The translations under genes were made by a program, and so were the position numbers. This document shows positions 2,122-60,463 of a DNA stretch of 64,000 nucleotides, in pieces; the first letter of the stretch is position 1, and every line of letters starts with the position of its first letter. The notes beneath the pieces were generated by a model. It had not been told where the DNA came from, made no database searches, and was given only the letters and a program-made list of their open reading frames with translations. Source of the stretch: Candidatus Woesebacteria bacterium (GTDB taxonomy: Bacteria; Patescibacteriota; Microgenomatia; UBA8517); NCBI GenBank assembly GCA_016926185.1, contig JAFGPD010000010.1, forward strand, positions 1,444-65,443, written 5' to 3'.

Positions 2122-2152
2122 TTTGACATAAATTGCCTTTGCACCCAATTTT

Positions 2153-3691: not shown

Positions 3692-3720
3692 TTGACCCTA
3701 TAGTGGATAAGGGTATATAA
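3692..3720 (+). promoter_or_regulatory. TTGACC-N16/17-TATATA promoter box upstream of a 17-codon ORF and the GmrSD-like gene
   Basis: CATTTGACCCTATAGTGGATAAGGGTATATAA; same motif family as 1018, 6779, 7556 and 10738. Confidence 0.4.
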
Positions 3721-3825
3721 TTTACCCATATTCATGGCAAAAAAGAACACTTCTGGTAGAGAGAATCTAGAGATATTTGCATAGATTGCAAAAGATGTTA
3801 GAAATATGTGAGAATACAGAAGAAA

Positions 3826-5562: not shown

Positions 5563-5619
5563 TCCTTTACCTTTTCTTCTATTTAGTTTCTATTTTATGC
5601 ATGCTATTCTTAGCCACCG

Positions 5620-6102: not shown

Positions 6103-6155
6103 GACCCTAATAGTAAGTATGATGTGTATTAACATCTGAATTGACTCTTTATATA

Positions 6156-6184
6156 TTGACGCTTTTTATTTCACGCGGTTTAAT
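6156..6184 (+). promoter_or_regulatory. Conserved promoter copy 2 (TTGACG-N17-TTTAAT) 6 nt before the ATG at 6191
   Basis: Near-identical to 1787-1815. Confidence 0.45.
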
Positions 6185-6190
6185 AAGGAT

Positions 6191-6469
6191 ATGGATGATG
6201 TAAAGAAAATGTTTCAAAAAATTGTGAATGGCCAGAGCGCCATGAAACAAGAGATACTTAAAGGAATTAAAAAAGTAGAGGATAAACTAACAAGCAGAAT
6301 AGACGGACTTGAAAAGAAAACTGAAAAAGGATTCAAAGAAGTTAATAGCCGTTTAGATAAACAAGGAAAATCCTTAGCTTATCTGGAGGATGATGCTCCA
6401 ACGGTTGAGGAATTTGATAAGCTGGAAAAAAGAGTTGCCAAGATTGAGCAAAAAGTGCTTCACGCTTGA
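6191..6469 (+). CDS. Small coiled-coil protein, paralog B
   Basis: 92 aa; MFQKIVNGQSAMKQ...LAYLEDDAPTVEEFDKLE...KVLHA shared with paralog A. Confidence 0.55.
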   Translation: MDDVKKMFQKIVNGQSAMKQEILKGIKKVEDKLTSRIDGLEKKTEKGFKEVNSRLDKQGKSLAYLEDDAPTVEEFDKLEKRVAKIEQKVLHA

Positions 6470-6522
6470 TTTAACATAAATTGCCTTCGGTGAAAATGGA
6501 TATAATTTGACCTTTTTAAATA

Positions 6523-6551
6523 TTGACGCTTACTATTTCATGCGGTTTAAT
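6523..6551 (+). promoter_or_regulatory. Conserved promoter copy 3 (TTGACG-N17-TTTAAT) before the ATG at 6558
   Basis: TATTGACGCTTACTATTTCATGCGGTTTAAT, a diverged copy of the 1787 and 6156 element. Confidence 0.4.
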
Positions 6552-6557
6552 AGGGAT

Positions 6558-6767
6558 ATGGCAGATAAATTCCTCACTGAAGAAGATATAGATCTTTTGG
6601 AATCAAGACTAAAAGAAGTTTTTGTGACAAAAGAAGACTTCACGGAATATAAAAGTGAACTCTTTGGTAAGTTGGACGAAATAATCAAAAATACCCGTGA
6701 TACTAATGATGAAGTTGAACTTGTTGAAAATAGAATTACCACAATTGAGACAAAGTTAGCTTCATAA
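6558..6767 (+). CDS. Small coiled-coil protein sharing the promoter of the paralogs but not their sequence
   Basis: 69 aa from the ATG at 6558 (MADKFLTEEDIDLLESRLKE...); the annotated ORF start at 6507 would lie inside the promoter box. Confidence 0.4.
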   Translation: MADKFLTEEDIDLLESRLKEVFVTKEDFTEYKSELFGKLDEIIKNTRDTNDEVELVENRITTIETKLAS

Positions 6768-6778
6768 ATTTTCCCAAT

Positions 6779-6807
6779 TTGACCCCATAATGTGTTGGAT
6801 GTAATAT
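6779..6807 (+). promoter_or_regulatory. TTGACC-N17-TAATAT promoter 7 nt upstream of the ATG at 6815
   Basis: CAATTTGACCCCATAATGTGTTGGATGTAATAT. Confidence 0.4.
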
Positions 6808-6814
6808 TGGGCTG

Positions 6815-7240
6815 ATGAGTACGAAAATAGCACTTCTTATGTCCACTAATGATTGGGAGAAGATGAATATTTATCTTAAGCACTTGTCGAAGAATCAAAG
6901 GGCAGCTTGGAGAAATAATCTTAAATATAGCAAGCGATTTCTTGAAAGTATCGGCTATCCAATCAATTTATATTTCTTTCACAGAAATATAGTTAAATTC
7001 AGAGCAAATTGCGTTGGAATTTTCCAAAAAAAAGACAGAATGTGGCTGGATGGCGAGATACCTGAAGAGTATAAGTCTTCTAAGACTGAGTTTACGACAG
7101 CGGTTTATTTCGATAAACTGAAAAGGGTTAAAGATACACATATAAGTGAGTTTCCAAAGTGGGATGACCCCTCGGAAAGTTTTGAAAGAGGACAGCAGGG
7201 ACTATTAAGAGTTGTAGATCTATTGGATATAGAAAATTGA
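6815..7240 (+). CDS. Hypothetical protein
   Basis: 141-aa ORF with its own promoter box; no recognised domain. Confidence 0.4.
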   Translation: MSTKIALLMSTNDWEKMNIYLKHLSKNQRAAWRNNLKYSKRFLESIGYPINLYFFHRNIVKFRANCVGIFQKKDRMWLDGEIPEEYKSSKTEFTTAVYFDKLKRVKDTHISEFPKWDDPSESFERGQQGLLRVVDLLDIEN

Positions 7241-7241
7241 A

Positions 7242-7529
7242 ATGAAAATCTTTGGTGGTTTATTAATAATATTTGGTTCTGTTTGGACTTTATGGCGATT
7301 GCTGAAACAACCCGAGATGTTTAGGATCACTAGGCAAAACAAAAAAGATAAAGGTAAATTGTCAGGAATCATCACCTATATTTTTTCAGAAACTTTTGGG
7401 TTATGGCCTAGTTTATTGATCATTTATTTTGGATTGAAAATGACAATTCCCGGGATCTTGCCGATTTTTACTAAAGCCGTATATGCACTTATTTTTGCTT
7501 TACTTCTTTTGTTTTTCGGTTTAATATGA
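7242..7529 (+). CDS. Hypothetical small membrane protein (3 predicted TM segments)
   Basis: 95 aa, hydrophobic stretches; starts 1 nt after the upstream stop. Confidence 0.35.
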   Translation: MKIFGGLLIIFGSVWTLWRLLKQPEMFRITRQNKKDKGKLSGIITYIFSETFGLWPSLLIIYFGLKMTIPGILPIFTKAVYALIFALLLLFFGLI

Positions 7530-7555
7530 ACAACTGAATTAACTTTCCTTCCAAT

Positions 7556-7584
7556 TTGACCCCATAGTCTTATCTAAGTATAAT
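7556..7584 (+). promoter_or_regulatory. TTGACC-N17-TATAAT promoter 10 nt upstream of the ATG at 7595
   Basis: CAATTTGACCCCATAGTCTTATCTAAGTATAAT. Confidence 0.45.
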
Positions 7585-7594
7585 ATCCTATATT

Positions 7595-8260
7595 ATGGAA
7601 AGATTGCACGGGGTTGAAGTGCTAAGAAATTATTCTTTCAAAGATACCTCATTACCTTATGAGATAGCTTTGGATAAATTATCTTTAAGAACACAGGCTG
7701 CAGTCGGAAAAAATATTGATGATCTGAGGGCTAAGCAAGATTATAATTCCCATCGAAAGAAAGCTCTTAGAGAATTGGATCAGTTGGAACAAATATTTGA
7801 AATAGATACAATACGCGGCGGTTTCTCTTTTAATGAGGATGAACTTAATGAAGTTTATGAGAGTATGGGTCACTTATCATATTCTGAGATCGTCAGAGGG
7901 TTCGGAGATGATATTCTTCCAAGGTTTTTTGGAGGAGTCTTGTCTGAACGTACGCCGGGAGCCACAATATCGGGATACTTGCTGGATATTACTCAAATTG
8001 TTAACCCGGATGTTGTCTCATACGAAGATAGTATAAGGGAAATGGCGAATTCTCTAAGAGGTACCAAAACTAACCCGTTTATGTTAGGTATCTGTTTTGA
8101 TGATGCAATAAATTTGAGAGGAACAGCCACCTTACCTCATGAATTTTTTATGGATAGTGAAGAAGCGAAAAGATTTGTGCAGGTATATCGCAATTCAATT
8201 AATCCTATGGAAAGAAAAGAATTTAAACAGGGATTAGATTTAAAAATAGTTGCATTGTAA
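7595..8260 (+). CDS. Hypothetical protein
   Basis: 221-aa ORF; no recognised motifs. Confidence 0.45.
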   Translation: MERLHGVEVLRNYSFKDTSLPYEIALDKLSLRTQAAVGKNIDDLRAKQDYNSHRKKALRELDQLEQIFEIDTIRGGFSFNEDELNEVYESMGHLSYSEIVRGFGDDILPRFFGGVLSERTPGATISGYLLDITQIVNPDVVSYEDSIREMANSLRGTKTNPFMLGICFDDAINLRGTATLPHEFFMDSEEAKRFVQVYRNSINPMERKEFKQGLDLKIVAL

Positions 8261-8356
8261 TAAAAAGACTTACACATCCAGATTATTGAAATAAATTGTC
8301 TTCGAGTTCCTGACTTTTTAATTTGACCACTGTATCTAAAGTGTGACAAGATATAG

Positions 8357-10705
8357 ATGTACTTAATGACAGATCTGAAGAATTTTTTCTCTAAATTCAA
8401 AACGAATAAAAAGCTGAAATATATTCTTATTTTCTATTGCGTAATTATTGTTTCCTTCCTCTTTTACAAAGCACTGAACGCCGATTTTAACTTTAATTTA
8501 GGAAAGATCGATGACTGGCAATTCACTCCTGATGTGACTTCTTCACTTTATGATCTTGATATAGGTAAATTTATGCGCAATTTGTCGGTTGTACAGTTTT
8601 TTGTGCTTATTGTTCTTCATTTTCTATATGCTCTTATACCGATAAACATTTTTTATCTGAATTATCGTTTTTTTGGATTTATTGTACGCAGGTTCAGAAA
8701 AGAGCTTAAATTCGGCAGCCGAAAGAATGTTGGCAGATCTATTCTTCTGCTTATTTTGGGAATTTTATCTGCCGGTGCCACAGTTTACTTATCTATACAA
8801 AGCAATTGGATCCTGCCTCCTGTTTTGGGTGCGGCAGTAATAGTATTAGCGTTAACACTTATTTATATAATCGTTTCCTCAATTTTATTGATTGTTAGAA
8901 CACTGAACATAATTTACAGAAAGCTGGCTAATAAATCCCTTTTTGGCATGAAGAGGAAATGGCTGTGGAACTTTAGTAGTGTAGTATCTGTATTGCTAAT
9001 ATTGGTGTGGGTGGGATTAAATATATGGGAAATATTTTTCGGGATTGATCTTTTCAGTGCTACAAATATCACTCCGGTTGGTGGTGGTCTAACGTCGATG
9101 AGCGCACCCTCATTCGGTTCATCTACAGGTACTTTCAATCTATCGCCTGATAGTGCACTCATGCCGTCAGGGGGAGGAGGATTTAGCGGTAGAACCTCTG
9201 ACAATATAGGCTTTTCTACAGGAGGAGCGAAGGATATAAATAACTTCAGGGAAAATATTAAAAATAAATACTTACCGCTTTTTACCGACGTGACTTATGA
9301 GGGACTTTTCTATGATTATTATTTTGATACTGGTCAGCAAGAGGAATGTGCTGAGCTTTTTTGTCCGTCGTATAGTTATGCACAATCTGCCGATCCGCTG
9401 TCAGGAGAGCCGCAATATTTCCTTTCGGTCGGCCTAAATTCCGGCATTAAACAATCTGATTTCCAAAGAAAGAAGCTCAATCTTGTTATTGTGATGGATA
9501 TTTCCGGCTCTATGAGCTCGAGTTTTAATAGATATTACTACGATCGTAAAACTAACGAATATGATGCTGAAGAGGAAAGTAAAAGCAAGATGCAGGTTGC
9601 GAATGAATCGGTTGTTGCGTTGCTTGATCATTTAAATCCTCAGGACAGGTACGGAATGGTATTGTTTGACGGCAGTGCTTATCTGGCTAAACCACTGAGG
9701 CTTTTAGATACAACAGACCTGGAAAGTATAAAGGGTCACATTCTTGAGATATCTCCGCAGGGTTCTACGAACATGGAGGCGGGATATAAACTCGGTACTG
9801 AGGTTATTGAAGAATACTTGGATATAGACCCCGAGGAATATGAGAATAGGATAATCTTTTTGACCGATGCACAGCCCAACACCGGTGTTTTAAGCGAGGA
9901 AGGATTGGTAGGACTATCTCTAAATAATGCAGATAGGGGAATCTATACTACATTTATCGGGATCGGAGTGGATTTTAATACCGAGCTTATTGAAGCAATG
10001 ACAAAGATAAAGGGTGCCAATTACTATTCTATTCACTCTGCTTCTGACTTTAAGTACAGAATGGATGAAGGTTTTGACTATATGGTCACACCTTTGGTTT
10101 TTGATCTTGTTTTAAAGCTTGATAGTCCTGGGTTTACTATTGATAAGGTATATGGATCTCCGGAGGCGAATCTGGCAACTGGGGAGATAATGAGAGTTAA
10201 TACCTTATTCCCATCTGATAGCACATCGGAAGGTGTTAAGGGAGGAATTGTTCTTCTGAAATTATCTAAAAATACTGATTCGGCTGAGGAAGTGAGTTTG
10301 GAGGTTTCATACGAGGATCGATTGGGTCAGCTGCACAATAATGAAAAGAAAGCAAATATAACAGTTATGGACAGCGATTATTATCCCAATACTGGTGTAC
10401 GAAAAGCAATATTGCTGACACGCTATGCAAATCTTTTGAAAAATTGGATACAAGATCAAAGATCAATATCTCAGCAAAACACTACTTATACAGAACCCTG
10501 TGTAAGTTCTGAGAGTGGTATTATTATTCCGGTTGAGAGAGAATTAAGTCGGTGGGAGAGAACTTCAGTTCCTTTAAAGGTAATGCCCGAATACAGGGAC
10601 TTCTTTTTTACATTTAATAATTACTTCGTTCAGGAAATGCAATATTTGCAGGATCAGGATCTTGAACGGGAGGTGCAGGTTTTTGATCTTTTAATTAACA
10701 ATTAA
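8357..10705 (+). CDS. Multi-TM membrane protein with Gly/Ser-rich linker and von Willebrand factor A (vWA) domain
   Basis: Several N-terminal hydrophobic helices; Gly-rich segment containing GTFNLSP; vWA MIDAS-like LNLVIVMDISGSMSS and later FLTDAQPNTG. Confidence 0.6.
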   Translation: MYLMTDLKNFFSKFKTNKKLKYILIFYCVIIVSFLFYKALNADFNFNLGKIDDWQFTPDVTSSLYDLDIGKFMRNLSVVQFFVLIVLHFLYALIPINIFYLNYRFFGFIVRRFRKELKFGSRKNVGRSILLLILGILSAGATVYLSIQSNWILPPVLGAAVIVLALTLIYIIVSSILLIVRTLNIIYRKLANKSLFGMKRKWLWNFSSVVSVLLILVWVGLNIWEIFFGIDLFSATNITPVGGGLTSMSAPSFGSSTGTFNLSPDSALMPSGGGGFSGRTSDNIGFSTGGAKDINNFRENIKNKYLPLFTDVTYEGLFYDYYFDTGQQEECAELFCPSYSYAQSADPLSGEPQYFLSVGLNSGIKQSDFQRKKLNLVIVMDISGSMSSSFNRYYYDRKTNEYDAEEESKSKMQVANESVVALLDHLNPQDRYGMVLFDGSAYLAKPLRLLDTTDLESIKGHILEISPQGSTNMEAGYKLGTEVIEEYLDIDPEEYENRIIFLTDAQPNTGVLSEEGLVGLSLNNADRGIYTTFIGIGVDFNTELIEAMTKIKGANYYSIHSASDFKYRMDEGFDYMVTPLVFDLVLKLDSPGFTIDKVYGSPEANLATGEIMRVNTLFPSDSTSEGVKGGIVLLKLSKNTDSAEEVSLEVSYEDRLGQLHNNEKKANITVMDSDYYPNTGVRKAILLTRYANLLKNWIQDQRSISQQNTTYTEPCVSSESGIIIPVERELSRWERTSVPLKVMPEYRDFFFTFNNYFVQEMQYLQDQDLEREVQVFDLLINN

Positions 10706-45842: not shown

Positions 45843-46616
45843 ATGTTTATGAATGCCTTAAATTATATTTTATTAGGAGTTGTTCAGGGATTGACGGAAT
45901 TTCTTCCTGTTTCTTCATCAGGACATTTGGTAATATTTCAGAGCATTTTACCCGGAGTTAACGAGCCGGGAATTATTCTCGAGGCATTTTTGCACGCTGG
46001 GACTTTACTTTCAGTTATTTATTTTTTTCGAAAGACATTTTTTAGGAAAAATATTAAATATTGGATATTGATCTGTATTTCTACTATTCCTGCAGTCTTG
46101 GTTGGGCTTTTCTTAAACGATCACGCTGAAAAGCTTTTCACTAATATCAGGGTCGTTGGTGTTGCACTTTTAATTACTGGTTTTATTAACTTCGCGACAG
46201 GCAAGATCAGATCAAAGATAAGGGAATCAGTGGCTTTTGAAAAATTTAACATGAAAGATATTTCAAATTCTTTAATAATTGGAGTTTTTCAGGCTGTTGC
46301 AATAGTCCCCGGAATATCACGTTCAGGTTCGACAATATTTGCCGGAAGAAAGCTGGGCTTAAGCAAAAATGATGCGGCGCAATTTTCTTTTTTAATGTCT
46401 ATTCCCGCAATACTTGGTGCGAACGCTTTCGAATTTGTGACCAGCAATAAAATTAATAGTGACTTTAACTATTTATATCTTATTGGATTTATATTTTCTT
46501 TTTTGTCAGGAGTGATCGCGATAAAGATCGTAATTAGATTTTTAGAAACGGCAAAATACGAATACTTTTCCTTTTATGTTTTTATTGTAGGAGTATTGGT
46601 GTTAATTATATCTTGA
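45843..46616 (+). CDS. uppP: Undecaprenyl-diphosphatase
   Basis: VSSSGHLV... and GISRSGSTIFAG signature, 7-8 TM. Confidence 0.8.
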   Translation: MFMNALNYILLGVVQGLTEFLPVSSSGHLVIFQSILPGVNEPGIILEAFLHAGTLLSVIYFFRKTFFRKNIKYWILICISTIPAVLVGLFLNDHAEKLFTNIRVVGVALLITGFINFATGKIRSKIRESVAFEKFNMKDISNSLIIGVFQAVAIVPGISRSGSTIFAGRKLGLSKNDAAQFSFLMSIPAILGANAFEFVTSNKINSDFNYLYLIGFIFSFLSGVIAIKIVIRFLETAKYEYFSFYVFIVGVLVLIIS

Positions 46617-46979
46617 AGCAAACTCCAAAAACTTCGGAATAAATAAAAACAAACCGATAATAACAGACATCATTGCTGCCAGAAGGACCATTGCAGCTGA
46701 GACATCTTTGGCAACTTTTGCCTCAGGACGAATTTCTGGACTAACAAGATTTACTAGTGCTTCAAGCATCGTATTGAGTAGCTCTAAAATTAGGACAAAA
46801 AATATTGTAAATGCCAAAAGTGCAAATTCAGAAAAATCCAGTTGAAGAAGAATTGCCATAATTAGCACTATGGTTGTGATAGTTAAATGAATACGAAAGT
46901 TCGGCTCTCTTGTAATGGCAGTCTTCAATCCCGTAAAAGCATACTTGAAACTTTTTATAGTTGAATGTTTTTTCAACAT
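46602..46979 (-). CDS. dgkA: Diacylglycerol/undecaprenol kinase (prokaryotic DAGK family)
   Basis: 125 aa, 3 TM; SFKYAFTGLKTAITRE...ELLNTMLEALVN; 15-nt convergent overlap with uppP. Confidence 0.65.
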   Translation of the reverse strand: MLKKHSTIKSFKYAFTGLKTAITREPNFRIHLTITTIVLIMAILLQLDFSEFALLAFTIFFVLILELLNTMLEALVNLVSPEIRPEAKVAKDVSAAMVLLAAMMSVIIGLFLFIPKFLEFASRYN

Positions 46980-47008
46980 TTTACGTCTTTCTTATTTAAC
47001 CAGATTAT

Positions 47009-47776
47009 TTGCTTGGAGTCTATTATATTAAGAATATGGACTTTTTCCGAAAGTCTGCATATTATGTAAATAGGGCAATGTGGAAAAAAAATCAGTTTTT
47101 AATTTTGTTGACAGTGGTTTTTGTTTTGCTGGCCAGTTTTGTAGTATTCGAACCGGGACAAAATAAAATTACAAAAGATCACTCCAACAGTCAACAAGTA
47201 CAAATGGGTTGTGTTTATCAGGATCTCTCAGGTGCGATCGACTATTCTCAGACAGTTGCGATTTTTAACGGTAAGCGAATTGATATACCCAGATATGCTT
47301 ACCTTGATAGTGTTGACAATAAGGTTTTAGGATTGGCCACAGAGGAGAGGTGGATCGAGGTTGATCTGTCTGACCAGAAGTTATACGCATGGGAAGGAGA
47401 TAGGCTTTTCATGGAAAGTCTGATCTCCTCAGGACTTCCCTGGTGGCCGACGCCGACAGGCGAGTTCAGGGTTTGGATAAAGCTGAGAGCAACAAGGATG
47501 GAGGGTGGGAGTGGTGCATATTATTACAATTTACCGAATGTCCCCCATACGATGTATTTTGCTAACGATGAAATACCTAGCTGGAGAGGTTTTGGGATAC
47601 ATGGAGCGTATTGGCACAATGAATTTGGCACTCCCCGCAGTCATGGCTGTGTCAACCTGCCTTTAGATGCTGCTGAAATGCTTTATTATTGGGCTACTCC
47701 AATTTTGCCTGAAGGTAAAACCTCAGTACGCTCAACCCTTGAAAATCCGGGTATAAGGGTGATCATCCATGAATAA
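47009..47776 (+). CDS. L,D-transpeptidase (YkuD family)
   Basis: TM anchor; catalytic HNEFGTPRSHGCVNLP. Confidence 0.75.
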   Translation: MLGVYYIKNMDFFRKSAYYVNRAMWKKNQFLILLTVVFVLLASFVVFEPGQNKITKDHSNSQQVQMGCVYQDLSGAIDYSQTVAIFNGKRIDIPRYAYLDSVDNKVLGLATEERWIEVDLSDQKLYAWEGDRLFMESLISSGLPWWPTPTGEFRVWIKLRATRMEGGSGAYYYNLPNVPHTMYFANDEIPSWRGFGIHGAYWHNEFGTPRSHGCVNLPLDAAEMLYYWATPILPEGKTSVRSTLENPGIRVIIHE

Positions 47777-47786
47777 CCTTTAGATT

Positions 47787-48260
47787 ATGGAACTTTTTAT
47801 AGCTTTCATTGCAAGTATACTATTGTGGCTGATGTTTGTTGGATTAGTGCTTTTATGGATAATTGATGGAAGGATAAAAAAAGAACAGGCACTTCACGCC
47901 TTTTTCTCGTCAACAACAGCTTGGACAGTGTCTCAAATGATAAAACAAATTTTTCCCAGACCGCGTCCGTATCAATTGAATGGCCATCAGCTTTTAACAG
48001 TAACACTTAATCATTATGATGGGTCCTTTCCTTCTACTCATGCGGCTTTGGCTTTTTCAATCGCTTTTGCGGTATATCTGCATTCTAAAAAACTTGGGAC
48101 CTTTTTTATGATTTGTGCATTTTTAGTGGCTTTAGGAAGGGTGTTAAGTAATGTTCATTATGCTGTGGATGTGGTGGGGGGTGGGATAGTAGGAGCAACA
48201 ACTGCATATTTTTTAGACAAACTTCATTTAGACAAGCTGATAGGCAAAAAGGGGAAATAG
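47787..48260 (+). CDS. PAP2-family phosphatase (undecaprenyl-PP/phosphatidylglycerophosphate phosphatase-like)
   Basis: KQIFPRPRPY, PSTHAA, SNVHYAVDVVGG = the three PAP2 motifs. Confidence 0.7.
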   Translation: MELFIAFIASILLWLMFVGLVLLWIIDGRIKKEQALHAFFSSTTAWTVSQMIKQIFPRPRPYQLNGHQLLTVTLNHYDGSFPSTHAALAFSIAFAVYLHSKKLGTFFMICAFLVALGRVLSNVHYAVDVVGGGIVGATTAYFLDKLHLDKLIGKKGK

Positions 48261-51598: not shown

Positions 51599-54500
51599 AT
51601 GGATGACAAAAGTAGAGACAACAATAACCACAGTGATGTGAACGATAATTTTGAATATAATCCTTCTGGATCTGTCGCGAGCGAAAACACCTCATCCGGA
51701 TTTTTCAAAAAAGCTTTTTTTGAAGGTAAGAACGAAATTTCAAAACTACTAATGCTTTTCAAAAATCTGAAAAACAAAAAATATCTGGTTGTATTATTAG
51801 TATTAATTCTATTTATTGGTTTAGTAGCATTAAAAAACCGACCTTCGAAGAAATCAATACAGGTACGGCAGGAAGAACAGGAAGAGATCACTTCAGAAGA
51901 TGATGGGTTTGAGAAAGTAGTTATCCCTGAACGCGAACAACCATTCTTCAAACTTGAAACGAAAGAAGTTAGGAGATTTGGAATATTGCCTGCAGAAGAT
52001 TTTGTGCTAAAGACCATTGAGCCCGTGACAGCTTCGTATATTAGATCAGTGATCGAAGATCCGGAAAATTTTAGTATTGAAGAAACTGGTGACAAAGAAA
52101 TTACGATAAAGAACCGGAACGCTCTTGATCTGGATGAGCCGATATCTATAGTATTAAACACTCAAGGTCAGCAATTGGGTGGCTATACTTTTGACCGTAA
52201 TTATAGTTGGGCTTTTCAGGCGCAGGGTAAATTTGCAGTAGCATCAACTGTTCCAGGAAACGAAAAAACGCAGGTGCCTGTGAATACAGGAATAGAAATA
52301 ACGTTTAATCAGGATGATTTTAAAGATCCTGTCAGATTAATTCAAATTGAACCTGAAATCCAATTCAGATCTCAGATCATTGATGAGACCTTTGTTGTTA
52401 TTCCCGATAAACCTTTAGATCACGAAACTGTATACACTGTCAGATTAAAAAGTGGTTTGAGACTCAATTCAAGAGACGACCAAATAAGCGAGGATTATGA
52501 ATTTTCTTTTCAGACTGAGGAAAAGAAAGAGCTTTCAAAACCCAAACCCTGGATCTCCATCCATAATAATTTTGTCCAGTCTTCTCCAACGGAGCCTTTT
52601 ATCACTAGGGTAAGTACAGCGAATTGGAATAATGATATTAAAGTAAATATAAAGGTTTATCAGTTTGGGAATGCTTCGGAGTTTGTAAGCTCAAGGGAGG
52701 AATACGATGAAGCAGTTCGCGATTGGCAGGTATATTACCCGAATAGGTATAAATTTTCGGAAGGACTGGGAGAGGTATTAAATGAAGATGTCAGCGTGCA
52801 GGAGGAAGAACAAATTCAATATATCCAATTGTCCAAAAATCTTGACCCTGGATACTATCTGATGGAATTTAGGGTAGAGGGAGAACTAGTATCTAATCAA
52901 GTATGGTATCAATCCTCAGAAATAGCAGGTTTCATTTCTTTGGGAAGAGATGATATTATCGTTTGGGCTAATAATTTAGCTTCAAAGTCAGCTATCAACG
53001 GAGCGCTTGTCAGGAGTATATCAACCGGAGGAACTTGGATCACAAATGCTGACGGTGTTGCCAAGTTTCCATCAGCGCTAGAATATTTCGATGAAGATAA
53101 CGATTACTTTGAGATATCTGATGCAGCAGGTAATTCTGTGGTCTTGCCGGTCGAGTCGCAAAAAGGAAACACCGGTCCGGGTGAGACTTCCGCTGATGAT
53201 TTCTGGTCTTATCTTTACACAGAAAAAATATATTATCTAAGTAACGACACTGTAAATATCTGGGGTGTGATCAAGGATAGAGATACAGGTGTTGTGCCCA
53301 ATGCAAGATTGGTTTTGTTTCATTCAGAAGAAATATATTCCGAGCCCCTAAGTCCATCAAGTGATGGTTCTTTTATCACCAAATTTCCGCTCAATGATGC
53401 TCCGGAGGGTTGGTATCAGCTTCAATTGAAAGTAGGAGATACTACAGTCGAGCAGTTAAGCTTCACGGTCAGACAGTATGTAAAACCTGACATGAAGATC
53501 GAAATAAGCTCCGACAAAAAAGCGATCTTTACAGATGAAGAGGTCAAATTTGAGGTAAAAACATCATTTTTCGATGAAACTCCCGGTGCAAATATCGACC
53601 TTAATGTCCATGAATACCAATCAGGTAAAAAGACAACCTCGAAAACCGATGATAATGGTGTTATTGAATACACTTACAGACCCAGCTATAAACAAGGATA
53701 CTATTACCCGAGGTATGAAGGTATTTCAGCGATACCCGGGATCACTCAGGAAAGTATTGTTGAGGGCAGTGGCAGTGTTAGAGTTTTTGGTCCGAAGATC
53801 ATGATGACAACCGACAGGGATCAAGAATCTGATAAGGCTTCGTTCACTGCGACCTTTAATAAAGTTGATCTGACAGGTATCAACAGCGGAACAACCAATG
53901 ATCCCAAGGGAGATCCTGTCGGTGGTAAAGATATTAATGTATTGATTGAAGAACACTGGACAGAAAGAGTGGAAACAGGATTTACTTATAGTTTCATTGA
54001 GAAATTAACTTACAAAACCTACAAATATGAAAGAAAAACTGAAGAGAAAGAAAATTTAACCCTTACCACCGACAGCTTTGGTGAAATATCTCATAACTTT
54101 GATATGACAATTGGCCGCTCTTATACTGTAGAGATTTCTGTGAATGACGAAGACGGCAAAAAAGTTGAAAGAACTTTGTACTTCTATGCATCCAAGTGGG
54201 TCGGAAGTTACGGGTATTATGGTAGTAGCAGCGAGGACACAAACGTTTATATTGATCTGGCTTTTGGCAGAGATACAAATGTCTATTCAGTTGGGGAGGA
54301 TGTATATGTCAAATTGACCCAGCAGGGAGATGATTATAAAAAATTAGATGATGATAAGTTTCTTTTTACTAAATCTCAAAGGGGCAGACAAGATGCTTTT
54401 GTTGAGGATGTCCCGCAGTTTTCTTTCCAATTTTCGCAAAGTGATGTTCCTAACACTTTTGTGAGCGCGGTAGTTTTTAATGGAAGGATCTACAAACGTG

Positions 54501-56809
54501 CTGAAGGATATTGTCAAACAAATTGGGTATGCGGAGGAGGATGGGGATATTACCATTATTACTATAGCCATAATACCTTCAAGGGTATTTATATAACACA
54601 TAAAAAAGAGGATAGTGAACTTGATATAGAAATTAAAACAACAAAAGCAAAATACGAACCGGGTGAGCGAGTTGATATTCAGGCTATTGTCACCAAGGAT
54701 GGTAATCCTGCCGGGGGAGCTAGTGTGAATCTTGCTATGGTCGATGCCGCACTAGCAGCCATTGGCGGTGTACGTGAACCCAGTGTTTTAGCAAGCGTTC
54801 ATGAGGCGATACCTCACCAGATATACTACGTTTATACCACTCATGAGCCAATAATTCCTGATACTCCGGGAGCAGAAAAAGGCGGTGGTGGCGGTGATAG
54901 GGATAATTTCAAAGACACAGCAGCATTTTATCAGGCACAAACTGATGGTGAGGGAGTGGCTAATTTTAGCTTTGAACTTCCTGACAATATCACGACATGG
55001 ATAGTTTATATGCAGGCAATTAATGGCAATCTGCAAGCCGGTCAGTCTGAAAGCAGCATTATCGTGACAAAGGATTTCTTTGTAACGTCAAAGTTTCCGA
55101 AAAATATCTTAGTGGGCGATAGTGCTTTTATTAGTGCAAATAGCTTTGGTGTGGCACTTAATGAAAATAGCACTATCGATTACTCAGTATTATTTAACGA
55201 CGGAGGAAGTGAAATAGATAGTCAGCAGGCTCAAGAAAAAGCATTTGTAGAGAAAGATTTTAGAATACCAGAACTTGAAGAAGGAACTTATGATGTTATT
55301 GTCAGAGGTAAATACTCTGATATGAATGACGGTGTTCGCTTACCTCTGGAGGTGGTTAATTCAAGAATAAGACAAGAATATTCGGTAAAACACAATGTGG
55401 ATGAGGGCGGTGAACTAAGTGATCTAATTACAGACGATCATCTTGAGGACGAACCAATAATGTTGGTGGTATCAGATGAGGGGAAGGGAAAGTTTTTCTA
55501 CACCCTTAGGGATTATTGTTATAGAGGTTGGAGCAATAGGTTAGAGAAAAGAATTGTTTCAAAGAGATCAGATACTTTACTGCGTGACAAATTTGACTAT
55601 GAGGAATGCCGTATGATCGAACCGTTTTTCTCGGAATTTCAGGGTGCAGATGGCGGTTTGTCTCAAGTTGTCTGGGGAGGAAGTGTACTTGACACATCTC
55701 TTTGGGCAGTAATAGTTGCACCAGACGAATTTGACCAGGATAAATTGGTTAAATATTTTGATGATGTTTACGAAAACAGTCAAGGTGACAGACTGCACAA
55801 GATAAGGGCTGGATGGGCTTTATCGCTTTTGGGAGAAAGTAAATTAAGGGAGCTGAAAGCAATGATTCCTGCTGCTATTTCATTTGATGAAAAAGTATAT
55901 CTTGGGATCGCACTTGCACAGCTTGGTGATAGGGAGGTTGCTAGAGGTCTTTTTCTTGATATTCTTGCTGATTATGCATATGAGCTTCATCCATACATAA
56001 GAATTGATTCAACACAAGACAGGGGCGCCAGTTATGAAGATTTCGTTGTTGAGACAAGTAAGGCCCTTTTGCTTGGTGAACTTGTGGATGATAAATATAA
56101 CGATCGTATGTATGAATACATCGATAATTACAGAGGAACCTTGCAAAATTATTTGATAGATCTGAGTGACATTGAGTATATTGATAACGCAATTGCGACA
56201 CTACCGGATAGTGACACACAGTATAGTTTGACCACGACTGCAGGCACAATTTCAGAAACACTCGACAAGGGAAAGAGTGAGTGGTATGAGCTTACTTCTA
56301 ATGATATTGATCAATTTGAATTTTCTTTGGAAACCGGAAAAGCTGATCTATTGGCAAAGTATCTTATTGATATAGATGTATTAAAAACTAAGAGTCAAGA
56401 CAAACGGCTTTCGATCAAACGTACTATAACTGAGGCCAAAAATGACGATGGCGTGATAAGACCGGGAGATATTGTCAAAATAACTTTAGAGCTGACACTT
56501 GATCTTGATAATGCGCCGAAATGTTCGTATCAAATAAAAGATTCGCTTCCTTCCGGTTTGACATATTTAAGCAGTCCTGGCAGTTTTGGTTTTAAAGATG
56601 CCTATTATGCAAGGGAAACTACCGGAAATACGATTGTGTTTAACACTTATAGCTCAAAATGGATATTCAAAGAAGGCAAGCAAGTTATAAATTATTATGC
56701 GAAAGCTTCGGCTGTTGGAGAATACAGAGCAGAACCGGCAGTCTTCCAATCGCTCAAGGAACTCACGGTCTTTTCGATGACAGATGAGGGAACTGTAGTG
56801 GTAGAATAG
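51599..56809 (+). CDS. Alpha-2-macroglobulin-family giant surface protein (1736 aa), membrane-anchored, apparently thioester-less
   Basis: N-terminal TM; LPDNITTWIVYMQAINGNLQAGQSESSIIVTKDFFVTSKFPKNILVGDSAF aligns by eye with the A2M-domain PDTITEW...FFV region; no CxEQ found (FQGADGGLSQ where GCGEQ would be expected). Confidence 0.55.
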   Translation: MDDKSRDNNNHSDVNDNFEYNPSGSVASENTSSGFFKKAFFEGKNEISKLLMLFKNLKNKKYLVVLLVLILFIGLVALKNRPSKKSIQVRQEEQEEITSEDDGFEKVVIPEREQPFFKLETKEVRRFGILPAEDFVLKTIEPVTASYIRSVIEDPENFSIEETGDKEITIKNRNALDLDEPISIVLNTQGQQLGGYTFDRNYSWAFQAQGKFAVASTVPGNEKTQVPVNTGIEITFNQDDFKDPVRLIQIEPEIQFRSQIIDETFVVIPDKPLDHETVYTVRLKSGLRLNSRDDQISEDYEFSFQTEEKKELSKPKPWISIHNNFVQSSPTEPFITRVSTANWNNDIKVNIKVYQFGNASEFVSSREEYDEAVRDWQVYYPNRYKFSEGLGEVLNEDVSVQEEEQIQYIQLSKNLDPGYYLMEFRVEGELVSNQVWYQSSEIAGFISLGRDDIIVWANNLASKSAINGALVRSISTGGTWITNADGVAKFPSALEYFDEDNDYFEISDAAGNSVVLPVESQKGNTGPGETSADDFWSYLYTEKIYYLSNDTVNIWGVIKDRDTGVVPNARLVLFHSEEIYSEPLSPSSDGSFITKFPLNDAPEGWYQLQLKVGDTTVEQLSFTVRQYVKPDMKIEISSDKKAIFTDEEVKFEVKTSFFDETPGANIDLNVHEYQSGKKTTSKTDDNGVIEYTYRPSYKQGYYYPRYEGISAIPGITQESIVEGSGSVRVFGPKIMMTTDRDQESDKASFTATFNKVDLTGINSGTTNDPKGDPVGGKDINVLIEEHWTERVETGFTYSFIEKLTYKTYKYERKTEEKENLTLTTDSFGEISHNFDMTIGRSYTVEISVNDEDGKKVERTLYFYASKWVGSYGYYGSSSEDTNVYIDLAFGRDTNVYSVGEDVYVKLTQQGDDYKKLDDDKFLFTKSQRGRQDAFVEDVPQFSFQFSQSDVPNTFVSAVVFNGRIYKRAEGYCQTNWVCGGGWGYYHYYYSHNTFKGIYITHKKEDSELDIEIKTTKAKYEPGERVDIQAIVTKDGNPAGGASVNLAMVDAALAAIGGVREPSVLASVHEAIPHQIYYVYTTHEPIIPDTPGAEKGGGGGDRDNFKDTAAFYQAQTDGEGVANFSFELPDNITTWIVYMQAINGNLQAGQSESSIIVTKDFFVTSKFPKNILVGDSAFISANSFGVALNENSTIDYSVLFNDGGSEIDSQQAQEKAFVEKDFRIPELEEGTYDVIVRGKYSDMNDGVRLPLEVVNSRIRQEYSVKHNVDEGGELSDLITDDHLEDEPIMLVVSDEGKGKFFYTLRDYCYRGWSNRLEKRIVSKRSDTLLRDKFDYEECRMIEPFFSEFQGADGGLSQVVWGGSVLDTSLWAVIVAPDEFDQDKLVKYFDDVYENSQGDRLHKIRAGWALSLLGESKLRELKAMIPAAISFDEKVYLGIALAQLGDREVARGLFLDILADYAYELHPYIRIDSTQDRGASYEDFVVETSKALLLGELVDDKYNDRMYEYIDNYRGTLQNYLIDLSDIEYIDNAIATLPDSDTQYSLTTTAGTISETLDKGKSEWYELTSNDIDQFEFSLETGKADLLAKYLIDIDVLKTKSQDKRLSIKRTITEAKNDDGVIRPGDIVKITLELTLDLDNAPKCSYQIKDSLPSGLTYLSSPGSFGFKDAYYARETTGNTIVFNTYSSKWIFKEGKQVINYYAKASAVGEYRAEPAVFQSLKELTVFSMTDEGTVVVE

Positions 56810-56816
56810 CTACAAA

Positions 56817-57623
56817 ATGAGTTTAATAAATTCCAAATTTAAGATAATAGTGTCAATATTGCTGATAATAATTATTTTAGTTGGATTATTTTACAAACAA
56901 AGAAAGGAACAAAAAGTATTAGGTGAATCGGATGATGAACATTTAGATATTCGTGGATTGGTAATACCTCACCATGACCTTGCTTTTGATCTAATAATTA
57001 GAGCTATTGAAAGTTCAAAGAAAGATACAGGTTACAGAAAAATTGTGATCATCGGACCCAATCATTACTATCCCAACAGCCCCTTTATAACAACCGGAGA
57101 TAGTTTGAGAGATTATTCAATAGACGAAGATTATGTTACGAAATTAGTCAGTTATGATCACGTTCATTTTGATAATGAAATGTTAGGAAATGAACATAGT
57201 ATCGGGATACCGATAGAGTACTTGGGCAAAGCATATCCCGAAGCAGATTTCATACCGATCATTGTTTCGCATTATTATAATGAGGAGTCAATGGACAAAT
57301 TTGCAGAAAAACTATCTGAAGACTTTTCATCTGAAACTCTTTTTGTAATGGCAGTGGATTTTTCCCACAATGTAGGTTTTGAAGAGGCGATGAGAAATAA
57401 CGATGATTCTATTTCTGCAATTGAAAGGTTTGATTATAATACTATCATTAATTTTGACGACAGATATATGGACTCACCTCTCTCAACAATACTGTTTTTA
57501 AATATTATGGAAAAATTGGGAGCAAAGAATTGGCAAACATATGACTCTTCACACGCAAGTTTGCTTAAGGGAATACCCAACCTTCAAGGGACAAGTTACG
57601 TGACAGGGGTTTTCTCGAAATAA
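56817..57623 (+). CDS. MEMO1-family (AmmeMemoRadiSam-B-like) protein, membrane-anchored
   Basis: VIPHHDLAF, IIGPNHYY, NEHSIGIPIEYL match the Memo PHAGY / GPSH / EHS blocks. Confidence 0.55.
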   Translation: MSLINSKFKIIVSILLIIIILVGLFYKQRKEQKVLGESDDEHLDIRGLVIPHHDLAFDLIIRAIESSKKDTGYRKIVIIGPNHYYPNSPFITTGDSLRDYSIDEDYVTKLVSYDHVHFDNEMLGNEHSIGIPIEYLGKAYPEADFIPIIVSHYYNEESMDKFAEKLSEDFSSETLFVMAVDFSHNVGFEEAMRNNDDSISAIERFDYNTIINFDDRYMDSPLSTILFLNIMEKLGAKNWQTYDSSHASLLKGIPNLQGTSYVTGVFSK

Positions 57624-57725: not shown

Positions 57726-58688
57726 ATGGCACAAAGAAGGTACAGACATAGAAAAAGACATCTTCAGGAGAGAGAAAAAAGAAGAGCTGAGAGCGCTTTG
57801 CACCGCAGGGAAAGATTGGGTCAAAGAATGAAAAGGCAACTAGTTCGTGCTCAGGAGAATGAAATTACCGAATATCATATTTATAAAAAACTAGCCGATA
57901 TTGTCAAAGATGAGAATATCGAAAATAGTAAGGTCTTAGAAAAAATTGCAGAGGAGGAAAAGAAACATTCCGAATTTTGGAAAGGGTACACCGAAGAGGA
58001 TCCAAAGCCGAAAAGATTTAAAATATTTTTCCATAATATTTTAGCAAGACTTTTTGGACTTACATTTTCGGTAAAGTTGATGGAGCAGGGTGAAGAGCTT
58101 GCCCAGGTGAATTATTCTGAAATAGCCAAAGAGATTCCTGAGGCAGAAAAGATTGAAAAAGAGGAGGGTGAACACGAGAAAAAATTGCTGGGACTTTTGG
58201 ATGAAGAGAGATTGAAGTATGTCGGATCAATGGTGTTGGGAGTAAATGATGCATTAGTCGAGCTGACTGGAGCGCTTGCTGGTCTTACATTGGCATTCCA
58301 AAATACAAGATTAATTGCTCTAACAGGACTCATTACAGGGATCGCAGCATCTCTGTCAATGGGAGCATCGGAATATCTTTCGGTAAAGGCTGAAGATAAA
58401 GAAAAAGAGCCTGTAAAAGCATCCATATATACGGGAGGTATGTATGTTGTTACGGTGATGATCTTGATCTTTCCTTATTTTATTTTTACGAACATTTATT
58501 ATTCACTTGCCCTTACCCTTTTTAATGCAATATTTATAATTTTGCTTTTTACTTTTTATATTTCGGTTGCCCAGGACCTGCCTTTCAAAAAGCGATTCTT
58601 TGAGATGGCAGGGATTTCTCTTGGAGTTTCTGCTCTAACTTTTGGTATTGGTTATATTGTAAGAAATACTTTTGGTATTGATATGTAG
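57726..58688 (+). CDS. VIT1/CCC1-family iron transporter with N-terminal ferritin-like (erythrin) domain
   Basis: ENEITEYHIYKKLA...EEEKKHSEFW (ferritin-like); membrane part GSMVLGVNDALVELTGALAGLT...GASEYLSVKAE typical of VIT1. Confidence 0.65.
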   Translation: MAQRRYRHRKRHLQEREKRRAESALHRRERLGQRMKRQLVRAQENEITEYHIYKKLADIVKDENIENSKVLEKIAEEEKKHSEFWKGYTEEDPKPKRFKIFFHNILARLFGLTFSVKLMEQGEELAQVNYSEIAKEIPEAEKIEKEEGEHEKKLLGLLDEERLKYVGSMVLGVNDALVELTGALAGLTLAFQNTRLIALTGLITGIAASLSMGASEYLSVKAEDKEKEPVKASIYTGGMYVVTVMILIFPYFIFTNIYYSLALTLFNAIFIILLFTFYISVAQDLPFKKRFFEMAGISLGVSALTFGIGYIVRNTFGIDM

Positions 58689-58886
58689 TTCAATTTTCTT
58701 TGCCAAATTATTCTGACAAGTCATTCTAGTAGCAATTTTTAAACGACTTTTGCAGCAACTCTTTTTGTACTATAATTTTTGTGGCTATAATCTCATGATA
58801 TTCGTTTTTAGAGTATCTTAGATATAATATTTTGATAGGATTATTATTGTACATTTTTATTTTAAATTTTTAGGAGGTGAAAAAAC

Positions 58887-59156
58887 ATGAAAGTACTTAA
58901 ATTTGGAGCAGTTTGGTGTCCGGGTTGTCTTGTAATGAAGCCTCGTTGGAAAGAGATCGAGGAAGAAAACCCGTGGCTCAAAACGGAATATTACGATTTT
59001 GATGAGAATAAAGAAATGGTAGATAGATATCATATTGATAAAAATCTGCCAACCTTTGTTTTTTTGGACAAAAATGAAGAGGAGTTTCTTAGGTTGCAAG
59101 GCGAACACTCAAAAAAAGAGCTTGTAAAAATAATTAATGATAATAAAGATAAATGA
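58887..59156 (+). CDS. Thioredoxin-like protein
   Basis: AVWCPGC active-site motif; strong SD AGGAGGTG upstream. Confidence 0.6.
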   Translation: MKVLKFGAVWCPGCLVMKPRWKEIEEENPWLKTEYYDFDENKEMVDRYHIDKNLPTFVFLDKNEEEFLRLQGEHSKKELVKIINDNKDK

Positions 59157-60463
59157 GTATTTTTAAAAAGATAAGTACAATAATAGTGGCGGTTTTTCTT
59201 ATACTGATAGTTATTAAGCCAACAAATGCACAGGAAAAACACGTGAATGTGTATTTGTTTTGGGGAGATGGCTGTCCGCATTGTGCAAAAGAGAAGGAAT
59301 TTCTTCAAGCACTGGATGAAAGTAATCCAGAGGTAAATGTTTACTATTTTGAGATTTACTATAGCAGCGAAAATAGAAAGTATTTACAAGAAGTACAAAA
59401 AACTCTAGGAACAGATTCTAATGGCGTTCCTTATTCGGTAGTAGGAGATCAGTCCTTCGTTGGTTTTAGTCCAACAATAACCACAGAAGAAATTAAGAAC
59501 AGGATTATTTATTGCTATCAAAATGATTGCCCGGATTCTGTGGCTAGTATAGTAGGTATAGTTCCAAGGGTGGATGAACCTGTACCAACAAAAATCCCGG
59601 AAGATGATAATGGTGAGAATGATCATGATGGTTCAATTGATCTCTCTCAAAAGCAAGACGACCAAAATGAAGCTGATACAGGATCAGATGCTGATGACAA
59701 AGAAAATATAATTCCTGAAAAAATCGTTTTTCCCGTCATTGGAGAAATTCAGACCAAAAACCTTTCGCTTCCCGTTTTTACAATTGTCTTGGGTGTTTTG
59801 GATGGCTTTAATCCTTGCGCAATGTGGACACTTCTTTTCTTGATAAGTCTTCTGTTGGGTATGGAAAATAAAAGGAGAAGGTGGATATTAGGAACTGCTT
59901 TTATTATTGCTTCTGCTTTTGTCTATTTTTTGTTTATGGCCGCTTGGCTAAATCTTATTATTTTCGTTGGTTTCGTTGTTTGGGTCAGGATACTAATAGG
60001 ACTAGTGGCAATTGGTGGAGGAGGGTATAACCTAAGAGAATATTTCACCAATAAAGAAGCTGCCTGTAAAGTGACTGGATCTGAAAAAAGACAGAAAGTT
60101 TTTGAAAAACTTAAAAATATTACTCATCAGAAAAAGTTTATAATTGCCTTGGGTGGAATAATTTTACTTGCTTTTGCAGTTAATCTGGTTGAACTTATTT
60201 GTTCGGCTGGACTTCCTGTTGTGTTCACCCAAGTTTTAGCTTTGAGTGAACTTAGTAGAGTTACTTATTATGGATATATGCTTATGTATATCTTTTTCTT
60301 TATGATAGATGATCTTTTTGTTTTCTTTACAGCAATGATTACCTTGGAAATGACAGGAATAAGTACAAAATATAGCAGAGTTTCTAATCTTGTTGGGGGA
60401 GTACTAATGCTTACTATTGGTCTACTTCTTATCTTCAAGCCGGAAGTATTGATGTTTGGGTAA
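59153..60463 (+). CDS. Fusion of an exported thioredoxin-like domain and a CcdA/DsbD-type transmembrane thiol-disulfide transporter
   Basis: Signal/TM then WGDGCPHCAKE (CxxC); C-terminal 6-TM region with GFNPCAMWTL and ELICSAGLPVVF, matching the two conserved Cys of CcdA; ATGA overlap with the upstream trx gene. Confidence 0.55.
   Translation: MSIFKKISTIIVAVFLILIVIKPTNAQEKHVNVYLFWGDGCPHCAKEKEFLQALDESNPEVNVYYFEIYYSSENRKYLQEVQKTLGTDSNGVPYSVVGDQSFVGFSPTITTEEIKNRIIYCYQNDCPDSVASIVGIVPRVDEPVPTKIPEDDNGENDHDGSIDLSQKQDDQNEADTGSDADDKENIIPEKIVFPVIGEIQTKNLSLPVFTIVLGVLDGFNPCAMWTLLFLISLLLGMENKRRRWILGTAFIIASAFVYFLFMAAWLNLIIFVGFVVWVRILIGLVAIGGGGYNLREYFTNKEAACKVTGSEKRQKVFEKLKNITHQKKFIIALGGIILLAFAVNLVELICSAGLPVVFTQVLALSELSRVTYYGYMLMYIFFFMIDDLFVFFTAMITLEMTGISTKYSRVSNLVGGVLMLTIGLLLIFKPEVLMFG

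Follow-up and report, generated by a model that had tools for sequence, protein, structure and literature searches.

Two classes of bacterial alpha-2-macroglobulin (A2M) have been described, both from Gram-negative bacteria (PMC5764988; PMC3735191). Type I proteins carry the thioester motif CXEQ and are encoded adjacent to PBP1c, and type II proteins (MagD/YfaS) lack CXEQ and belong to a six-gene operon; MagD, although thioester-less, still traps protease non-covalently (PMC5764988). Here we describe a third class of bacterial macroglobulin system, which is widespread in monoderm bacteria and the candidate phyla radiation (CPR), has a transmembrane anchor and is encoded with a Memo-like partner. 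The locus comes from a contig of a Candidatus Woesebacteria metagenome-assembled genome (MAG), of which we analysed a 64-kb stretch (hereafter called the window). Within it, a gene for a 1736-aa A2M-like protein (51599..56809; all window features given here are on the forward strand) is followed directly by a gene for a 268-aa Memo-like protein (56817..57623). The first open reading frame (ORF) ends with a TAG stop at 56809 and the second begins with an ATG at 56817, leaving a spacer of 7 nt (56810..56816), not the 8 nt given in a first-pass annotation of this DNA, and without a terminator-like site. The NCBI product names are "Ig-like domain-containing protein" for the large protein and "AmmeMemoRadiSam system protein B" for the small one, and our analysis flags both as systematic misannotations. 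We found no description of the A2M-like family, or of its pairing with Memo, in the literature; a patescibacterial paper cites the structure of the type I protein Sa-A2M only while listing adhesion-type domains (PMC13059738).

We propose that the two proteins form an undescribed extracytoplasmic module, in which the Memo-like enzyme acts directly on the loop at the bait position of a thioester-less macroglobulin. We rate the chances of this proposal as even. The presence of Memo co-varies with a sequence motif in that loop. The biochemical function of the Memo family is a long-standing open question in bacteria and in animals, and the loop provides a concrete substrate hypothesis.

The type I proteins (ECAM/YfhM and Sa-A2M) are the best structural and profile matches of the window protein, and share its multi-domain architecture and fold. 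Both kinds are also held at the cytoplasmic membrane with most of the protein beyond it (a prediction in the case of the window protein), and both have a gene for an envelope-facing enzyme alongside. Whereas type I proteins have a thioester cysteine, a lipobox anchor and a variable bait, the window protein has an invariant arginine, an N-terminal transmembrane helix and an extra Big_5 domain, and the bait-position loop of its family is short and conserved. Type I systems occur in Gram-negative hosts with PBP1c as partner; the window family occurs in monoderm or CPR hosts with a Memo-like partner. Indeed, we found no CxEQ, no lipobox and no pbpC-like neighbour for the A2M-like protein. No PBP-type transglycosylase/transpeptidase is present among the Pfam-annotated neighbours in the window, and a motif scan of the neighbours, run without a positive control, found no GT51 motif. 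On the strength of that scan, and of the lack of any other conserved neighbour cluster, we rejected pbpC as a partner, in keeping with the first-pass annotation, which had named a MEMO1-family gene in the place of the usual pbpC.

Type II proteins share with the window protein the absence of CxEQ, and E. coli YfaS likewise has no C.EQ. The first-pass annotation had likened the window protein to this known thioester-less subfamily, but membership did not survive comparison with E. coli yfaS (our sole representative of type II) and its operon. Against the hidden Markov model (HMM) of the window family, whose members reach 1100-2100 bits, YfaS scores 130.7 bits; the canonical A2M HMM gives it 288.6 bits. 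YfaA, YfaT, YfaQ and YfaP of E. coli have no BLASTP match at E <= 1e-3 in the ORFs of 160 homologous loci (described below) and the window, from which the type II partners DUF2138, DUF1175, DUF2300 and DUF2135 are thus absent. Furthermore, in diderms MagD resides in the periplasm and has a signal peptide, whereas the window protein is anchored by a transmembrane segment. We therefore rejected type II membership on both context and clade. For a trap that has no thioester and relies on operon partners, MagD is nevertheless the best mechanistic precedent.

An arginine in place of the thioester cysteine

The large protein belongs to the A2M superfamily and keeps the full architecture of macroglobulin (MG) domains, bait-region domain, A2M domain, thioester domain (TED) and C-terminal MG domain. 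It is above the Pfam gathering thresholds for A2M, MG2, A2M_BRD and Big_5; its bMG3 and bMG10 matches are sub-threshold, the Pfam TED model finds no match in it and neither does any NCBIfam model. The MG2 domain (residues 538-624; 53210..53470; PF01835, 33.5 bits) aligns with MG domains of ECAM and Sa-A2M. It is followed by the bait-region domain (A2M_BRD; residues 891-1052; 54269..54754; PF07703, 29.1 bits) and the MG7-like A2M domain (residues 1112-1180; 54932..55138; PF00207, 44.3 bits). The motifs LPDNITTWIV (residues 1127-1136) and SSIIVTKDFFV (residues 1152-1162), from which the first-pass annotation had recognized an A2M, lie in the last of these.

A search of the PDB with the single sequence gave marginal matches only (E ~1e-3 to 0.02). 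A profile of 30 homologues matched E. coli YfhM/ECAM and the Salmonella A2M in the MG, bait-region/A2M and C-terminal MG10 regions and left the TED unaligned. Profile-profile alignment with hhalign, against eight canonical TED-containing bacterial A2Ms, then aligned the TED too (probability 100%, E = 4.6e-81, 1217 columns): residues ~1290-1535 lie opposite the canonical TED, including its QxxDGG motif. Together with the helices of an AlphaFold2 (AF2) model (model residues 760-998), this delimits a TED-like all-helical domain without thioester at residues ~1296-1534 (55484..56200). The C-terminal beta domain (residues ~1540-1736; 56216..56806) resembles bacterial MG10, as judged from AF2 strands and a profile match to YfhM residues 1415-1599.

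The AF2 model, which covers residues 537-1736 (mean predicted local distance difference test (pLDDT) 85, predicted template modelling score (pTM) 0.70), consists of beta-sandwich domains, a helical domain and a C-terminal beta domain. Foldseek returned the Salmonella A2M structure 4U48 as its best match (E = 1e-50) and found ECAM too; the best structural matches are 4U48, 5A42, 4ZIQ and 4RTD. In superpositions, the model fits the protease-activated forms, 4ZIQ and 4RTD of ECAM (TMq 0.55-0.56), much better than it does the native forms, 4U48 and 5A42 (0.31). This activated-like shape could be a modelling artefact, or a hint of a compact resting state in a thioester-less protein.

The protein is most simply read as single-pass, with its N-terminus inside and its C-terminus outside. 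Basic residues (KNLKNKK) precede a hydrophobic membrane anchor, YLVVLLVLILFIGLVAL, at residues 62-78 (51782..51832), and the low-complexity tail before it (residues 1-61; 51599..51781) is predicted to be cytoplasmic. Relatives have an equivalent single N-terminal hydrophobic segment. The family assignment and the N-terminal anchor proposed by the first-pass annotation were thus both upheld.

The same holds for the missing thioester. C.EQ occurs nowhere in the 1736 residues, and hhalign places the canonical YPYGCxEQTM opposite GWSNRLEKRI, with R1314 at the position of the cysteine, E1316 at that of the glutamate and K1317 at that of the glutamine. The thioester-equivalent site is therefore S-N-R-L-E-K (residues 1312-1317; 55532..55549) and not, as the first-pass annotation had it, FQGADGGLSQ (residues 1347-1356), the FQGADGG of which lies opposite the downstream TED motif YQHxDGGWGWW. 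Arginine occupies the cysteine position in 30/30 aligned homologues. The pattern in ~100 family ORFs is [GS]-x-R-[LVIF]-[ED]-[QKR], often R-x-E-Q. Judged by this alignment, the thioester is replaced by a conserved arginine and has not simply decayed. Any trapping would therefore have to be non-covalent, as in MagD.

A conserved gene pair and a co-varying loop

The small protein has the Memo fold. It scores 56.8 bits against Pfam Memo (PF01875; cut-off 27) and 62.6 bits against TIGR04336 (cut-off 26), and the latter score is the reason for its NCBI name. Its AF2 model, made from a 26-sequence alignment, has a mean pLDDT of 90.5, and the top Foldseek matches are human MEMO1 (3BCZ, 7KQ8 and 7L5C; TM ~0.69), followed by class III extradiol dioxygenases. 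The motifs PHHDLAF (residues 51-57), GPNHYY (residues 80-85) and EHSIGIPIEYL (residues 126-136) can be recognized, and PH, GPxH, EHS and DFxH align with the corresponding motifs of MEMO1. From the alignment, the putative metal/active-site residues are H52, H53, N82-H83, E126-H127, D181, H184 and D219-S220 (56967..57479). The PHH (H52, H53), GPNH (H83), EHS (H127), DFSH (D181, H184), DSP (D219) and TSY motifs are invariant among the 26 sequences. In the A2M-linked partners of other loci, the active-site residues are conserved in 83-87 of 87. The profile search left the equivalent of MEMO1 C244 unaligned; from motif order, this metal ligand is probably replaced by an aspartate, D219. The Memo-like protein would be metal-dependent, to judge from its conserved residues.

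In addition to the probable ligand exchange, the window protein differs from MEMO1 in its N-terminal anchor and predicted extracytoplasmic site. A hydrophobic signal-anchor, FKIIVSILLIIIILVGLFY, spans residues 8-26 (56838..56894), within a helix of the AF2 model (residues 3-32), as the first-pass annotation of a MEMO1-family protein with its own membrane anchor had anticipated. Memo relatives with a complete N-terminus have a short basic stretch and then a hydrophobic segment, and at least 67 of the 87 paired partners carry a comparable segment upstream of the PHH motif. This signal-anchor or signal-peptide architecture indicates that the catalytic domain most likely lies outside the membrane. 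The anchored subfamily is large, with 989 clusters (50% identity) at E <= 1e-30 in an exhaustive profile search; some of its members are fused to PGA_cap, and the genomic partner is either an A2M-like protein or a protein that ends in an EWGG motif (see below).

The name "AmmeMemoRadiSam" is a misnomer for anchored Memo proteins. As noted in the first-pass annotation, the other components of that system appear to be missing: there is no AMMECR1 or radical-SAM partner among the Pfam-annotated neighbours within ~10 kb of the pair, and a motif scan of the 64 kb found neither a radical-SAM-like ORF (>=200 aa with CxxxCxxC) nor an RGC[IV]G motif. An ORF with an AMMECR1-like motif accompanies Memo in only 2 of ~120 loci, and most of the loci lack AMMECR1-like and radical-SAM-like ORFs alike. 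We rejected the canonical AmmeMemoRadiSam reading on this gene context and on the N-terminal anchor.

We collected 80 genome loci seeded by the A2M-like family and 80 metagenome loci seeded by the Memo family, and scanned all their six-frame ORFs with HMMs of both families. Loci were counted as testable if an A2M-seeded locus had at least 700 nt downstream, or a Memo-seeded locus at least 400 nt upstream. A Memo ORF lies directly downstream on the same strand in 39 of the 66 testable A2M-seeded loci, and, conversely, 41 of the 66 testable Memo-seeded loci have an A2M-like gene directly upstream. The genes are tightly coupled, with the Memo frame opening within 20 nt of the A2M stop, or overlapping it, in 86/87 pairs. 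When all neighbouring ORFs were clustered by all-against-all comparison, only the A2M-like and Memo clusters were broadly shared (125 and 122 loci); the next three clusters reached 22, 15 and 12.

The pair spans at least three phyla. In Patescibacteria it occurs in Woese-, Uhr-, Collier-, Magasanik-, Peri- and Peregrinibacteria; in Chloroflexota, in Dehalococcoidia, Chloroflexia and Limnocylindria; and in Bacillota, in Peptococcaceae, Syntrophomonadales, Tepidanaerobacter sp. GT38, Symbiobacterium and Ca. Dehalobacter alkaniphilus. These include an isolate genome (Tepidanaerobacter sp. GT38), a Symbiobacterium MAG and a complete Dehalobacter genome. The taxon counts call for some care, as several MAG contigs carry labels that seem at odds with what they encode and may be mis-binned: L001, L004, L032, L078 and L080 are labelled uncultured Gammaproteobacteria, L011 is labelled a Mycobacterium leprae MAG, and the labels of L010, L066 and L074 also look odd. 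Proteins 38-40% identical to the Woesebacteria A2M-like protein sit on contigs labelled Gammaproteobacteria. The tight coupling of the genes and their conservation across phyla lead us to propose that they are a co-transcribed unit. The first-pass annotation had thought the pairing unusual, and had allowed that the genes might prove unlinked in relatives; in the subfamily with an E-x-GG loop, linkage is the rule.

That loop sits between the bait-region and A2M domains, which is topologically the bait position. In the window protein it is HEPIIPDTPGAEKGGGGGDRDNF (residues 1082-1104; 54842..54910), running from the invariant H1082 to R1101/F1104 with an A-E-K-G-G motif, and the peptide that carries E1093 and G1095-G1096 is PDTPGAEKGGGGGDRDNF. 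AF2 predicts the loop to be disordered, like a bait: pLDDT falls below 50 at model residues 541-566 (protein residues 1077-1102), the largest disordered segment of the model.

All Memo-linked relatives have either a loop of ~25-33 aa with [AGS]-E-x-G-[GE], or the same loop with an inserted HINT domain. The loops of Memo-less relatives are long, variable and of low complexity (42-67 aa, in Clostridia) or read GEGGDTxGGGG (in Chloroflexota). Among the A2M-seeded loci, which make up the unbiased set, the pattern [AGS]E.G[GE] is found in 40/40 that have Memo versus 1/27 that do not (Fisher p = 1e-17, with no phylogenetic correction). On a tree built from non-loop columns by a crude unweighted pair group method with arithmetic mean (UPGMA), we counted 7 changes of Memo adjacency and 6 of the motif, with a mismatch between the two in one leaf only (L034).

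Memo-seeded loci show in addition that the link follows the loop and not the loss of the thioester. In three of them (L114, L119 and L127; A2M ORFs at 4579-9714, 2-3874 and 3880-8994, respectively) the gene directly upstream of Memo encodes a canonical thioester A2M with DYPYGC[MTV]EQ, and at the bait position of each is [AS]E-x-GG and then a HINT domain. The two with complete N-termini (L114 and L127) have an N-terminal hydrophobic segment. We therefore rejected a role of Memo as a stand-in for the lost thioester, since Memo also accompanies A2Ms that have both the thioester and this loop.

Possible roles of the pair

How might such a module work? In our proposal, the macroglobulin would be tethered to the cytoplasmic membrane by its N-terminal helix, and the second component would be a metalloenzyme of the Memo fold, also tethered to the membrane, in which the His/His/Asp/His site is intact. 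The Memo-like protein would bind, cleave or modify the disordered [AGS]-E-x-G-G loop, and this action would prime or control a conformational switch of the macroglobulin, non-covalent and MagD-like, at the cell surface. On this view, relatives that have long variable loops and no Memo would be traps of the conventional broad-bait kind.

Several CPR relatives have a HINT module of ~135 aa inserted in the bait-position loop, right after AE-x-GG. It matches PT-HINT, Vint and Hom_end_hint, and is present in loci L058, L063, L076, L078, L079, L107, L108, L112 and L115 and, at residues ~1020-1180, in proteins P0015, P0016, P0019, P0020, P0028 and P0030. No HINT domain is present in the window protein. 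The module begins with a cysteine and ends with VHN, and the residue that follows is Q, E, D or A, which is not a nucleophile. In these features it looks like a self-cleaving module of the bacterial intein-like (BIL) type and not like a splicing intein. The insertion suggests autoproteolytic cleavage, via a Gly-Cys thioester, at the place where proteases cut classical A2Ms. In the complement C3 family, a dedicated protease cuts at a site topologically equivalent to the A2M bait, giving a two-chain mature form. HINT sits exactly in the equivalent loop of the CPR relatives, a position which suggests, by analogy with C3, C4 and C5, that cleavage at the loop may be part of maturation; unlike the complement proteins, the window protein has no furin-type site.

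A number of observations weigh against direct action of Memo on the loop. The HINT-bearing CPR loci all retain the downstream Memo gene, which weakens the idea of Memo as a plain loop-cleaving protease. No protein of the Memo/LigB fold is known to have protease or ligase activity on peptides, and a good many of the host lineages are strict anaerobes, which speaks against dioxygenase chemistry. Broad-spectrum A2Ms have hypervariable baits, which a loop this short and conserved does not resemble, and this makes the trap function itself uncertain. The co-variation has its own weak points: the loop pattern was written after the data had been seen, its p-value takes no account of phylogeny and the transition counts depend on the quality of the UPGMA tree. 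Moreover, one locus (L034) has the motif without an adjacent Memo, and the Memo-less Chloroflexota loop differs only subtly from the Memo-linked one. Protease-trap activity and physical or catalytic contact between Memo and the loop are best regarded as predictions, as is the extracytoplasmic topology.

A broader reading takes in the Memo proteins that have no A2M neighbour. Anchored Memo proteins of this kind are usually ~600-aa Memo-PGA_cap (CapA-like) fusions. At 22 loci without A2M, Memo adjoins a 550-900-aa protein without a Pfam match, which in the example of L143 has an N-terminal hydrophobic segment (the loci include L105, L120, L125, L126, L129, L132, L133, L137, L139, L142-L144, L147-L150, L152 and L157-L160). 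In 21/21 copies with the C-terminus on the contig, this protein (cluster 2 of the neighbour ORFs) ends in GF[TA]xxE-W-G-G-xxxx, with EWGG starting 6-10 residues before the C-terminus; the tail reads ...GFTVVEWGGALHR. Anchored Memo proteins could therefore be unrecognised extracytoplasmic protein-maturation enzymes that recognize E-x-G-G in the product of an adjacent gene, either in the bait-position loop of a macroglobulin or in the C-terminal EWGGxxxx tail of this second partner. Memo would cleave, modify or ligate the partner and, in some lineages, HINT would generate a reactive Gly-Gly end. If true, a first biochemical substrate of Memo would be defined, and the third class of bacterial macroglobulin system would be one regulated by a dedicated enzyme and not by a thioester. 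We hold this generalization tentatively and would sooner bet against it: E-x-GG in a second family of Memo neighbours is suggestive, but the motif is short and could be a coincidence, a caution that applies equally to its use in favour of a direct action on the loop.

Alternatively, the two may simply be co-regulated envelope proteins, a non-covalent trap and a Memo with a separate role in the envelope, comparable to the defence-plus-repair pairing of A2M with PBP1c and with no direct action of one on the other. Known bacterial A2Ms do pair with cell-wall enzymes without being their substrates, as in the case of PBP1c and of the mag operon (PMC5764988). Some Memo partners are fused to PGA_cap, a domain of the capsule-synthesis type, and the window holds the envelope genes BacA, DAGK, YkuD and PAP2. 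Co-regulation leaves unexplained, however, why Memo should track the loop motif through ~6-7 independent co-transitions, and why E-x-GG should recur in the alternative Memo neighbour. We consider it unlikely, though a serious competitor of direct action on the loop.

A different possibility is that the macroglobulin is primarily a transmembrane anti-sigma sensor, which would signal proteolytic or envelope damage to an extracytoplasmic function (ECF) sigma factor, while Memo plays an accessory part. In 13 of 84 loci (L015, L022, L027, L032, L037, L049, L053, L068, L080, L107, L108, L112 and L128), from Bacillota, Chloroflexota and CPR, the A2M-like gene is directly preceded or overlapped by an ECF sigma gene, and the A2M-like proteins at these loci have longer cytoplasmic N-termini, of 70-110 aa. 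The N-terminus at L053 matches the anti-sigma zinc finger zf-HC2 (28.2 bits), the sole match among nine sigma-linked N-termini tested; a C[HN]D...L motif recurs in several of the others. Fused to an anti-sigma factor, a macroglobulin ectodomain would make a signalling device that senses proteases or damage. As an account of the window pair this is improbable, and we keep it as a feature of a minority of the family. No sigma gene adjoins the A2M-like gene in the other 71 of the 84 loci, and just one N-terminus matches a known anti-sigma domain. In the window there is no match to an HMM built for the ECF sigma factors of the sigma-linked loci, and the 61-residue tail of the window protein is without an anti-sigma signature, with no Pfam match at E <= 1 in residues 1-80. 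Taken together, HINT insertions at the bait position and anti-sigma fusions suggest that bacteria have put the macroglobulin fold to another use, as a regulated switch on the cell surface.

We think it very improbable that the large protein is an Ig-like/MG surface adhesin of an ultra-small episymbiont, whose likeness to A2M is mere structural scaffolding. Its NCBI name and Big_5 domain would fit such a role, and very large surface proteins of Patescibacteria have often been proposed to be adhesins (PMC13059738). Yet the A2M architecture is complete, with both TED and bait-region domain, and the same pair is found in Bacillota and Chloroflexota, among them the Tepidanaerobacter isolate and the complete Dehalobacter genome. 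Because the pair spans these two phyla as well as Patescibacteria, an adhesin role specific to small-genome or episymbiotic organisms, which the first-pass annotation had entertained, is unlikely.

Finally, we give next to no credence to an ordinary known system, be it a type II A2M (MagD/YfaS) or canonical AmmeMemoRadiSam with its other genes elsewhere: the missing CxEQ, the above-cut-off TIGR04336 score and the NCBI name point that way, but YfaS reaches just 131 bits where family members exceed 1100, the YfaA/YfaT/YfaQ/YfaP set is unmatched in the 160 loci, AMMECR1- and radical-SAM-like ORFs are lacking in the window and AMMECR1-like motifs are rare near Memo elsewhere, and the N-terminal anchor of this Memo is out of place in a radical-SAM system, which would be cytoplasmic.

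Other features of the locus

In two CPR loci (L037 and L079), a Memo-PGA_cap fusion follows the A2M-like gene.

Upstream of the pair, window positions 45843-48260 hold a run of envelope-lipid and cell-wall genes, encoding BacA (undecaprenyl-diphosphatase), DAGK_prokar, a YkuD L,D-transpeptidase and PAP2. A Lon gene and an ORF of 168 aa without an assigned function lie between this run and the A2M-like gene. The arrangement of the run is not kept in the other loci. Downstream, positions 57726-60463 encode a rubrerythrin-like/VIT1 fusion with a weak likeness to the MbfA iron exporter, then a small thioredoxin, and a 436-aa protein with a thioredoxin-like N-terminal domain and a multi-pass membrane C-terminus. 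These genes could be an extracytoplasmic redox/metal set adjoining the gene of a metalloenzyme; their arrangement, too, is not conserved in the other loci.

Two further features of the large protein lie outside the regions considered above. The Big_5 Ig-like domain occupies residues 212-306 (52232..52516; PF13205, 37.3 bits). The bait-region domain contains a Cys/Gly/Tyr-rich insert, AEGYCQTNWVCGGGWGYYHYYYSHNT, at residues 968-993 (54500-54577), which is an insertion in the hhalign alignment and has low pLDDT. This insert is absent from Bacillota and Chloroflexota members, and occurs in variant forms, with two cysteines spaced as C-x5-C, in close CPR relatives.

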